64,000 nucleotides of DNA from a virus. A model generated the notes under the pieces. The model saw only the letters and a program-made list of their open reading frames with translations. It searched no databases and was not told where the DNA came from. Below, one piece after another: positions 57,297-58,586 of this stretch; within the stretch, counting starts at the first letter, position 1, and each line of letters starts with the position of its first letter. The position numbers were made by a program, and so were the translations under genes. The DNA is taken from IMG/VR virus record IMGVR_UViG_3300025276_000023, positions 1-64,000 of that record; one strand, 5' to 3'.

Positions 57297-58211
57297 ATGT
57301 ATATACTTAACAGCATCGATTTAAATGGAACGTCACTAGTTAGTCTAGCACTTCGTTTAGAGGATTCAATTGAGAATGTTCTACTACAATGGGTAGACGA
57401 GGACGACGTTACAGAGGACATGGTCTGTTGTCTTTTCAATGAAGACACTAAGATGCTTGAATCTCCAGAAGGCATTGTACTGGCAGAAGTTATTAGCGTT
57501 ACAGAAGATGATGGTACTTATCATTTAGCATCTGGCGTTTATCCTGGTGCTGGTTTGTTTTCAGTGGTTGAAGAACTTAACTTCACATTCTGCACTCACT
57601 TAGGGTCTCATCTTCCATCTGATGTAAAGAGCATTGACTGCGATTACTCGCCAGTAACGATGTCACCATTAGCTTACACTGAAACACTTGAGTGTAAGAA
57701 GTTGATGGATGAAAGTACAGAAGAGTACTTCGCTATTTCTTTTGAACCAGCTACTCGTAACAGCATGAGTTCTGAAGACGCCGCAATTAGTATTGCGTTT
57801 AATAACCATATGTTCTATCAGTATTTTGGACATGTGACATTACCTGGCAATAGACATCGCTTTGTAAGTTTCGATGTGCCGATATCTGTCAACCAAACAA
57901 CTGCCCTGCTTTCTTTGCAGAACGATGCAGAAATATTTGAACGTAAAGCAGACATTAAGATAAACTTCATTGCCGAAGAACTCAAGGTAACTAAGTTGCT
58001 AGATGTTTATACGGTTAAAGCTACAGTGATGTTAATCTATCCATTCGTAGTAGAAAAAGAAATCCTACAATACAGAAGCCTAGACGATATTGTTTCTAAT
58101 CCTTTTGAGTTGGATGAAGATATAATTTCTATACTGGTAGAATCAGCAGCAAGTGAAAGCTTACATTCATTGAAGTCTGCTATCCATGAAAAATCAATTG
58201 ATAATTTATAA
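57297..58211 (+). CDS. Hypothetical acidic protein
   Basis: AAGGA RBS; 304 aa. Confidence 0.75.
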   Translation: MYILNSIDLNGTSLVSLALRLEDSIENVLLQWVDEDDVTEDMVCCLFNEDTKMLESPEGIVLAEVISVTEDDGTYHLASGVYPGAGLFSVVEELNFTFCTHLGSHLPSDVKSIDCDYSPVTMSPLAYTETLECKKLMDESTEEYFAISFEPATRNSMSSEDAAISIAFNNHMFYQYFGHVTLPGNRHRFVSFDVPISVNQTTALLSLQNDAEIFERKADIKINFIAEELKVTKLLDVYTVKATVMLIYPFVVEKEILQYRSLDDIVSNPFELDEDIISILVESAASESLHSLKSAIHEKSIDNL

Positions 58212-58247
58212 TGCAAATTAAGTAAGGTATATATCATAACAGTGAGT
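58211..58247 (+). promoter_or_regulatory. Putative early phage promoter
   Basis: ATGCAAATTAAGTAAGGTA-TATAT-CATAACAGTGAG. Confidence 0.65.
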
Positions 58248-58365
58248 TAATTGGAAATAACAGAACCAATGTAACTTAAGAAGCAATTTAATATTAACTT
58301 ATTATACAGTTTCCGCAAACAGAAAAAAGCTAAACAAAGGCAGGGCCTCCACTCTGCCTTTTCAT
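58243..58365 (+). ncRNA. Candidate small RNA or structured leader
   Basis: About 120 nt with no real ORF after the promoter. 5' hairpin GAGTTA-ATTGG...CCAAT-G-TAACTT; 3' hairpin AAAGGCAGGG-CCTCCA-CTCTGCCTTT. Confidence 0.35.
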
Positions 58366-58389
58366 CTCTCAATTACTAAGGACGTCCTC

Positions 58390-58515
58390 ATGACTCTTAA
58401 AGAAGAATTAATCCGAGCAGCAGCAAAAACGCTAGTAGTAACAACCGTTGCCTTTACAACAAAGTTGGCATTAGACAAAATTAAACAAGCAGTAGAAAAA
58501 GATAAAAATAAATAA
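58390..58515 (+). CDS. 41-aa micro-protein (not in ORF track)
   Basis: MTLKEELIRAAAKTLVVTTVAFTTKLALDKIKQAVEKDKNK; TAAGGA RBS. Confidence 0.6.
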   Translation: MTLKEELIRAAAKTLVVTTVAFTTKLALDKIKQAVEKDKNK

Positions 58516-58558
58516 TTCTACTGTAAGATTTTCCACCTCGTGTACACGTGGTCTTTTA

Positions 58559-58586
58559 GGTGGGGAGGAGTCCCCACCATTTTTTT
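58559..58586 (+). terminator. Intrinsic terminator
   Basis: GGTGGGGA-GGAG-TCCCCACC followed by ATTTTTTT. Confidence 0.8.

Follow-up and report, generated by a model that had tools for sequence, protein, structure and literature searches.

The DNA analyzed here is the first 64 kb (64,000 nucleotides (nt), hereafter the window) of the 129,102-base virus record IMGVR_UViG_3300025276_000023, with a G+C content of 37.5%, and this report concerns a small transcription unit near its downstream end (58211–58586). The record represents part of an uncultured marine jumbo phage whose distant relatives include phiKZ, Goslar, and phages like them. The unit lies between a 304-amino-acid (aa) gene, whose stop codon (58209–58211) is directly followed by a promoter-like stretch, and a convergent minus-strand gene for a baseplate protein. 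It comprises an early-type promoter, a leader with a strong hairpin, a 41-aa open reading frame (ORF) with its ribosome-binding site (RBS), and a 3′ region with a palindrome and two terminators (Table 1). An original prediction, made from the DNA letters, had described it as a self-contained early cassette in which a structured RNA with an anti-Shine–Dalgarno-like loop precedes a small peptide gene. Direct reading of 57800–59000 recovered all of the proposed parts at their places, and the unit is indeed self-contained, with an early-type promoter of its own, what looks like a real small gene, and strong terminators.

Table 1 Features of the cassette and its immediate surroundings, in window coordinates
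Feature	Position	Strand	Description
Early-type promoter copy (putative)	58212–58248	+	ATGCAAAT-like upstream element, TATATCAT core at 58230–58237, TGAG at 58243–58246
Non-coding leader (predicted)	58245–58389	+	~145 nt; weak 5′ hairpin, ATG–TAA, A-rich stretch
Leader hairpin	58336–58361	+	10 base pairs (bp), loop CCUCCA, then UUUUCAUCU counting three U's of the stem
RBS CTAAGGA	58376–58382	+	Overlaps palindrome AGGACGTCCT at 58379–58388
41-aa ORF	58390–58515 (stop included)	+	Predicted single alpha-helix
Strain-variable patch, codons 21–40	58449–58509	+	61 nt replaced by 67 letters in one metagenome contig
10-bp palindrome CGTGTACACG	58539–58548		3′ untranslated region (UTR), 24 nt past the ORF stop
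Strong intrinsic terminator	58559–58586	+	8-bp stem, loop GGAG, T7 run, −15.4 kcal/mol
12-bp bidirectional terminator hairpin	58611–58638		Common to the convergent baseplate gene (58659–59657, minus strand)

The region that had been proposed as an early promoter (58230–58248) belongs to a recurrent family of AT-rich motifs of this phage. The intergenic motif of the record consists of TATAT, three variable letters, about five letters, TGAG, and then A/T. In its strict IUPAC form, it has five matches in the window, all on the plus strand, compared to 0.40 ± 0.70 expected, and none of 100 shuffles reached five. A looser 8-letter core occurs at 28 plus-strand and 23 minus-strand sites across the 129-kb record; from the plus-strand sites, we chose by eye 14 promoter copies that are intergenic and have a downstream TGAG-like element, leaving out the other 14 (mostly inside long ORFs) and all minus-strand sites. 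The copy at 58230 fits the consensus well and, like three of the others, is preceded by an ATGCAA-like element. The distance to the start codon sets it apart, being 160 nt at this copy and 35–63 nt in the 13 others. A review of jumbo-phage polymerases (PMC7598289) describes for each such phage its own conserved AT-rich motif of ~10 nt, centered near −10 and located upstream of early operons. The motif found here, AT-rich, ~10 nt long, and placed before presumed early operons, appears to be an early promoter of this kind, i.e., one used by a virion RNA polymerase. Because the start site is taken ~10 nt past the motif center, following the rule given in PMC7598289, transcription would begin at ~58243–58246 and would probably be early, and on this putative start the leader has the ~145 nt originally proposed. 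Sigma-70-like promoters were not enriched (5 versus 7.5 expected), and the one inside the leader (58276–58305), at chance level, was discarded.

The 41-aa ORF was confirmed at its predicted place and is very probably a real gene, as suggested by its RBS, its codon usage, and a frame-keeping strain variant. The sequence CTAAGGA is found 21 times in 129 kb (about 16 copies would be expected by chance from composition, by our own estimate), and 15 of these copies have an ATG 5–10 nt downstream. Thirteen of these 15 sites start ORFs of at least 110 aa, the two others being the 41-aa ORF and a 20-aa ORF on the minus strand. With a codon model trained on 70 ORFs of at least 200 aa, the 41-aa ORF scored 0.505 bits per codon, which is above 83% of in-frame 40-codon gene pieces and was reached by none of 3000 out-of-frame pieces, while the other five frames across it scored −0.58 to 0.12. 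The 20-aa ORF (58580..58518), the only minus-strand combination of CTAAGGA and ATG in the record, overlaps the terminator and the palindrome; with a codon score of −0.13, it was rejected as a probable chance ORF.

The description of the product as amphipathic and Lys-tailed proved roughly right, with a net charge of +4, a maximum hydrophobic moment of 0.38, and one predicted helix. AlphaFold2 places this helix at residues 3–39 with a mean predicted local distance difference test score (pLDDT) of 93.9, a value to be read in light of how easily peptides of this kind yield confident helix predictions. Membrane spans usually exceed a hydrophobicity threshold of ~1.6; the best 19-residue Kyte–Doolittle mean of the 41-aa peptide is 1.29, with K13 and K25 within the segment, so that there is no clear membrane span. 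The exact sequence occurs on three contigs in a protein collection, its sole other relative being a 43-aa variant with 88% identity. No family or homologue was found in Pfam, PHROGs, the protein Atlas, or by tblastn of phage records, and the best Atlas scores (0.85–0.86) were to unnamed clusters only and gave no lead. A profile search of 1.84 billion cluster representatives returned only the peptide itself and one 495-aa repeat protein (E = 4.5e-4 over 20 residues), which we took as spurious. We would guess that the product is a host-takeover or anti-defense micro-protein that binds a partner through its helix.

The variant was located by placing the contigs of four sequencing runs on the window (X6 and X7 cover only small parts of it, and not the cassette), and is carried by a 4167-nt contig (record 4 of run X4). 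Outside the replaced patch, this contig differs from the window by five letters in 58123–58448 and one in 58510–59700, over 1517 flanking bases. Within the ORF, the replacement adds 6 nt and keeps the frame, changing the protein by T24A, L26I, D29T, K32Q, and Q33E and extending its C-terminus by DK; the only difference listed for the ORF besides it, 58408 T>C, leaves Leu7 unchanged. Because the five residue changes would need at least seven base changes, the C-terminal half of the protein represents a sharply localized variable patch. As the only large difference between two otherwise near-identical strains, this patch may reflect diversifying selection or patch recombination. All contigs seen have the same leader.

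Upstream of the gene, the leader looks non-coding. Its two open frames have codon scores of 0.005 and −0.107 bits per codon, i.e., non-coding-like, and its short part (up to the hairpin) includes no ORF of at least 10 codons behind an RBS, only an ATG–TAA start–stop (58269–58274) located 39 nt past the promoter motif, the distance at which the first start codon stands in other copies. The leader fold has a z-score of −2.67 relative to shuffles (1 of 200 as good), to which the leader hairpin contributes much. Two hairpins had been described in this leader: the one at the 5′ end (58245–58276) is weak, appearing in the minimum-energy fold and disappearing from the centroid of the leader-only fold, while the 10-bp hairpin with the CCUCCA loop is present as proposed, with one G–T pair and a stability of −13.6 kcal/mol. 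This compares to −13.2 to −15.3 kcal/mol for four other intergenic hairpins, and to −15.4 and −17.7 kcal/mol for the two terminators of the cassette. Read on either strand, the leader hairpin is shaped like an intrinsic terminator; it stands 14 nt before the RBS and is the first plus-strand hairpin past the 304-aa gene.

This order of promoter and hairpin is unique among the 14 promoter copies. A strong hairpin in the 200 nt downstream is seen at the 58230 copy only, whereas nine of the 14 have one within 80 nt upstream, the usual order being gene stop, hairpin, promoter, and RBS; no hairpin lies upstream of the 58230 copy. In front of several other genes of the phage, too, a hairpin is followed by an RBS without an intervening promoter (e.g., at 44429 and 52173). 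Searches for the leader elsewhere returned nothing similar: in Rfam, with E-values allowed up to 10, no match was below 1.9 or at the gathering score, and the seven weak matches (small nucleolar RNA, microRNA, and sroC at 17.5 bits for a gathering score of 45) were dismissed as chance-like. No paralogue of the leader was found in the 129 kb by blastn-short. A hairpin pattern scan of viral contigs gave 58 loci, all of them unrelated generic hairpins, none with a CCTCCA loop or the cassette flanks, and the best local score (21.5) was that of the hairpin itself. One X5 contig matching 58331–58364 only had unlike flanks and was taken as an unrelated hairpin.

At the 3′ end, both elements of the original prediction were found, i.e., the palindrome downstream of the ORF and a terminator with a GGAG loop (58559–58578) and its T7 run. 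The 12-bp hairpin that follows is called as a terminator on both strands, and the region 57500–59800 contains seven terminator-like sites, compared to 1.3 ± 1.1 in shuffles. Since 10-bp palindromes occur 142 times in the record (1.1 per kb), one such palindrome alone is unremarkable.

Other early micro-protein units of the same phage, at 29188–29811 and around a 42-aa ORF near 103.4 kb of the record, resemble the cassette: they have a promoter copy and a consensus-type RBS, their genes are separated by hairpins and have gene-like codon scores of 0.46–0.73, and their products of 40–60 aa combine a charged tail with a core that is hydrophobic or rich in Val/Thr/Ala. They differ from it in their clearer membrane-type segments (1.45–2.31 versus 1.29) and in their leaders of 36–43 nt rather than 145 nt. 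The unit at 29188–29811 has one early promoter for three micro-ORFs (two of 46 aa and one of 58 aa), all with a hydrophobic segment and a charged tail, and is punctuated by two hairpins.

A hairpin between a phage promoter and its gene may have counterparts in phiKZ and other Pseudomonas phages. Oxford Nanopore Technologies cappable sequencing (ONT-cappable-seq) of six Pseudomonas phages, including phiKZ, identified 42 terminators in 5′ UTRs, of which 34 were associated with a long read-through transcript or a dominant short RNA of <250 nt (PMC10914365). Of the 29 5′UTR-derived candidates, 17 belong to phiKZ, in which northern blots confirmed the short RNAs ahead of PHIKZ221 (~71 nt) and PHIKZ302 (141 nt) as well as the read-through forms (PMC10914365). 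One case of a 5′UTR hairpin per 14 promoter copies would be in line with the phiKZ numbers. The cassette resembles these phiKZ loci in the succession of phage promoter, candidate 5′UTR terminator, and gene, in its origin from a phiKZ-like jumbo phage, in its expected products (an RNA of <250 nt and a read-through mRNA), and in a short part free of ORFs of at least 10 codons behind an RBS. Unlike them, it is known from sequence alone, has no sequence similarity to any isolate, and precedes a micro-gene of 41 codons.

Taken together, we propose, with a probability of about 0.5 for the whole chain, that the cassette is an early micro-protein gene with a leaky terminator in its 5′ UTR, yielding a short RNA of ~120 nt and an mRNA of ~340 nt. 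Apart from one unusual feature in its layout, the cassette would represent an early transcription unit of the ordinary kind for a phiKZ-like jumbo phage. The early promoter would fire at ~58245, and the RNA would cross ~90 nt of A/U-rich non-coding leader before reaching the terminator-type hairpin and the U4 behind it. This hairpin would probably stop part of the transcription arriving from upstream and part of that from the cassette's own promoter, the terminated product being a 5′UTR-derived short RNA of ~120 nt. The read-through product of ~340 nt would end at 58578–58586, carry a freely accessible consensus RBS, and be translated into a 41-residue, positively charged, single-helix protein whose C-terminal half differs between strains. 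By analogy with phiKZ, the presence of both RNA species together is plausible. If the hairpin does terminate, the cassette would provide a compact example of a 5′UTR-derived short RNA coupled to a micro-protein gene, outside Pseudomonas phages, and the variability of the C-terminus is the pattern expected of a protein contacting a changing host or defense target. Current views are unchanged by this cassette.

Several observations weigh against this interpretation. The tail of the leader hairpin is short (U4, then CAUCUCU), so that it may not terminate, and the terminator scan calls this hairpin on the minus strand only, or on the plus strand only with a shortened stem. The RNA polymerase domains PF00562 and PF00623 had no Pfam match in the 129-kb fragment, which is 44% complete, and the subunits of jumbo-phage RNA polymerases are very divergent. 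Because these domains were not found, the link to phage-encoded polymerases can only be inferred. No RNA run is listed among the sequencing runs that contain this DNA, and the transcript-level steps are deduced from the DNA. Of the 142 palindromes, 15 contain at least six G/C letters, and two of these 15 flank the 41-aa ORF (58379, on the RBS, and 58539), with no motif in common, a placement that the proposed unit leaves unexplained. Finally, the CCUCCA loop is unusual, as only two of 67 plus-strand hairpin loops contain at least four C's, and, as a mild argument against an incidental match, the leader loop is complementary to no other of these 67 loops than that of the terminator, and vice versa.

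This complementarity between CUCC and GGAG, on which the original prediction had built a possible loop–loop contact, is real. Four or more letters match in 27 of 1326 plus-strand loop pairs (2.0%), and because the cassette has three hairpins and the feature was noticed after the fact, the match is suggestive at most. A 4-nt loop cannot pair all of its four letters for steric reasons, and a 5-bp register between GGAGG and CCUCC would require opening three stem pairs of the −15.4 kcal/mol terminator. We consider both the CCUCCA loop and its complementarity to four letters of the terminator loop to be most likely incidental. The idea that the RNA gates the RBS did not hold up in partition-function folds computed from the inferred start to +90: positions −15 to −5 have a mean unpaired probability of 0.52, inside the range of 12 other early genes (0.35–0.91), the ATG has 0.63, and the RBS has 0.51 in the full 342-nt transcript. 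Similarly, the suggested 5′–3′ folding was not recovered, as the centroid fold contains no long-range helix and the only one in the minimum-energy fold pairs the A-run with the U-run of the terminator; these folds consider nested structures, which cannot reveal pseudoknots or kissing loops.

The two functions originally put forward, a regulatory RNA and an RNA-gated toxin, both lean on these loops. C-rich-loop RNAs that pair with RBSs include the staphylococcal RNAIII and RsaE type, and known regulators of this kind carry several C-rich motifs. The cassette is like them in that a C-rich motif complementary to GGAGG is exposed in a hairpin loop, and unlike them in having a single motif, on a terminator hairpin. 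It is quite improbable, in our view, that the ~120-nt terminated leader acts in trans as an early small RNA (sRNA) whose CCUCCA loop blocks GGAGG-type RBSs of host (or phage) mRNAs. The anatomy would fit, with a promoter, a 5′ hairpin, a single-stranded A-rich stretch, and a terminator hairpin; the rare CCUCCA loop is also fully unpaired in the ensemble (probability of 1.00 for all six letters), which makes it an accessible C-rich seed, and the RBS consensus of the phage is CTAAGGA, not GGAGG. However, only five letters are complementary, all within the loop of the terminator hairpin itself, no Rfam family matches, and the invariance of the leader among the contigs seen leaves no variation from which to show conservation. 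For phiKZ, published results point both ways, since abundant 5′UTR-derived short RNAs are made with no function assigned (PMC10914365), whereas the one 75-nt sRNA predicted by early differential RNA sequencing (dRNA-seq) was not confirmed by northern blot (PMC8244752). In a more elaborate form of this idea, which we regard as very improbable, an abundant ~120-nt RNA would serve in host shutoff: its CCUCC loop, an anti-Shine–Dalgarno core, would occlude GGAGG-type host RBSs while the CTAAGGA sites of the phage escape, and contact of the loop with the GGAG/GGAGG of the 3′ terminator would tune the amount of 41-aa protein made from the rarer read-through mRNA. If true, this would be an RNA-based host-shutoff device in a jumbo phage of the nucleus-forming type; a narrow literature search found no report of an anti-Shine–Dalgarno small RNA in a jumbo phage. 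Type I loci such as hok/sok combine an antisense RNA gene, an extended fold-back, and a membrane peptide. A unit of this sort, with a toxic membrane peptide whose mRNA is silenced by the leader fold or by the CUCC/GGAG contact, seems even less probable here. The small, basic, helical peptide with its Lys-rich tail, the long structured leader, and the complementary 5′ and 3′ elements, whose loops match over 4 nt and are unique partners among 67, are shared with such loci. In contrast, the cassette has no antisense RNA gene, its RBS is predicted to be open and within the normal range of accessibility, its complementarity is limited to 4 nt, and its only long-range pairing, between the A-run and the U-run, is absent from the centroid. 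With a hydrophobicity of 1.29, compared to 1.45–2.31 in other small early ORFs of the phage, and two Lys in the segment, the product does not resemble a small hydrophobic membrane-spanning toxin. The minus strand carries no phage promoter motif in 49452–64247 and no sigma-70-like site in 58300–58700, so no antitoxin RNA gene is evident; nor is it obvious what a lytic jumbo phage would gain from an addiction module. With an RBS predicted to be open, no robust long-range pairing, and no promoter detected on the opposite strand, the evidence goes against a type I toxin design.

Two other alternatives address the layout and are both compatible with an early micro-protein gene behind a leaky terminator. 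It is possible, if unlikely, that the leader is the remnant of a decayed promoter-proximal micro-gene with the hairpin as its terminator or spacer, which would make the 41-aa ORF the second or third gene of the unit. The ATG at 58269 falls 39 nt past the motif, inside the 35–63 nt range, but is immediately followed by TAA; the frame behind this ATG–TAA stays open for 34 codons, up to a TAA inside the next RBS, although an open stretch of ~35 codons is not rare in this composition (~0.09 by our own estimate) and the leader frames score as non-coding. The word AACTTAA of early 5′ UTRs recurs here, followed by AAGAAG where other copies have the RBS, yet the leader has no paralogue in 129 kb. The unit at 29188–29811 shows the same architecture (promoter, two 46-aa ORFs, hairpin, 58-aa ORF, hairpin), but neither of its 46-aa ORFs gave a BLASTP alignment with the 41-aa product. 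Rather unlikely, in turn, is a hairpin that mainly stops late antisense transcription escaping from the baseplate gene and thereby protects the upstream plus-strand block, its position in the leader being a by-product. This would account for the scan recognizing a terminator only on the minus strand, where its tail is TTTGTTTAGCTTTTTTC, and the A-run before and T-run after the stem make the hairpin symmetric. Nevertheless, the 12-bp bidirectional hairpin already stands directly behind the baseplate gene, and with a terminator at 58336 the small gene could still be covered by antisense RNA along its full length. In phiKZ, convergent genes with a bidirectional terminator between them are known (PMC10914365).

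The attribution to a phiKZ-like jumbo phage draws on two structural proteins. CheckV estimates the record to be 44% complete, which implies a genome of ~290 kb. The 332-aa minus-strand protein at 58659–59657 corresponds to the baseplate assembly protein PHROG 3216 (E = 1.6e-76), and by tblastn it matched 290 phage records at <60% identity (28–34% in the best rows). A 680-aa virion protein (6023–8062) likewise matched 290 records, including Goslar, PCH45, RP12, and phiKZ-like Pseudomonas phages. As both proteins match those phages, the source is a distant relative of the phiKZ-like jumbo phages. The DNA was found in seven sequencing runs from three studies, labeled marine metagenome or metagenome. 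At the nucleotide level, neither megablast nor blastn against phage isolates matched the cassette, and no diverged relative of the locus could be confirmed among viral contigs (searched with the 304-aa neighbor, the baseplate protein, and a peptide alignment) or metagenome contigs (searched with the peptide alignment). The cassette is not syntenic in LucasX, where the baseplate gene has two genes of the same strand downstream of it. A tRNA scan of the window returned 0 genes.

The record also contains other recurrent elements. At two further early promoter copies, at 55549–55660 of the window and at 103779–103875 of the record, a mini-ORF with a good RBS (7 and 10 codons) precedes the main gene. 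Two nearly identical copies of a ~90-nt structured element lie between genes, at ~48200–48300 of the window and ~104275–104370 of the record; in both, a stem of 8–10 bp encloses a central AAAA, a GAGGGAGGAG run is present, and a gene start follows directly. The minus-strand foot of the 12-bp hairpin at 58611–58638 bears the TATG motif usual in this genome: TATG is found at the 3′ foot of 21 of 67 intergenic hairpins on the plus strand and 18 of 74 on the minus strand, compared to ~3–4% expected, often with ACATA as its mirror image ahead of the stem. In phiKZ, the late-promoter motif is a TATG that overlaps the start site (PMC7598289), and by analogy such hairpin–TATG units could be combined terminators and late promoters, or alternatively a longer conserved stem. 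Within the window, they include 3451–3473, 23502–23528, 27678–27697, 31589–31611, 40373–40391, 47506–47532, and 62261–62282, with more in the record.

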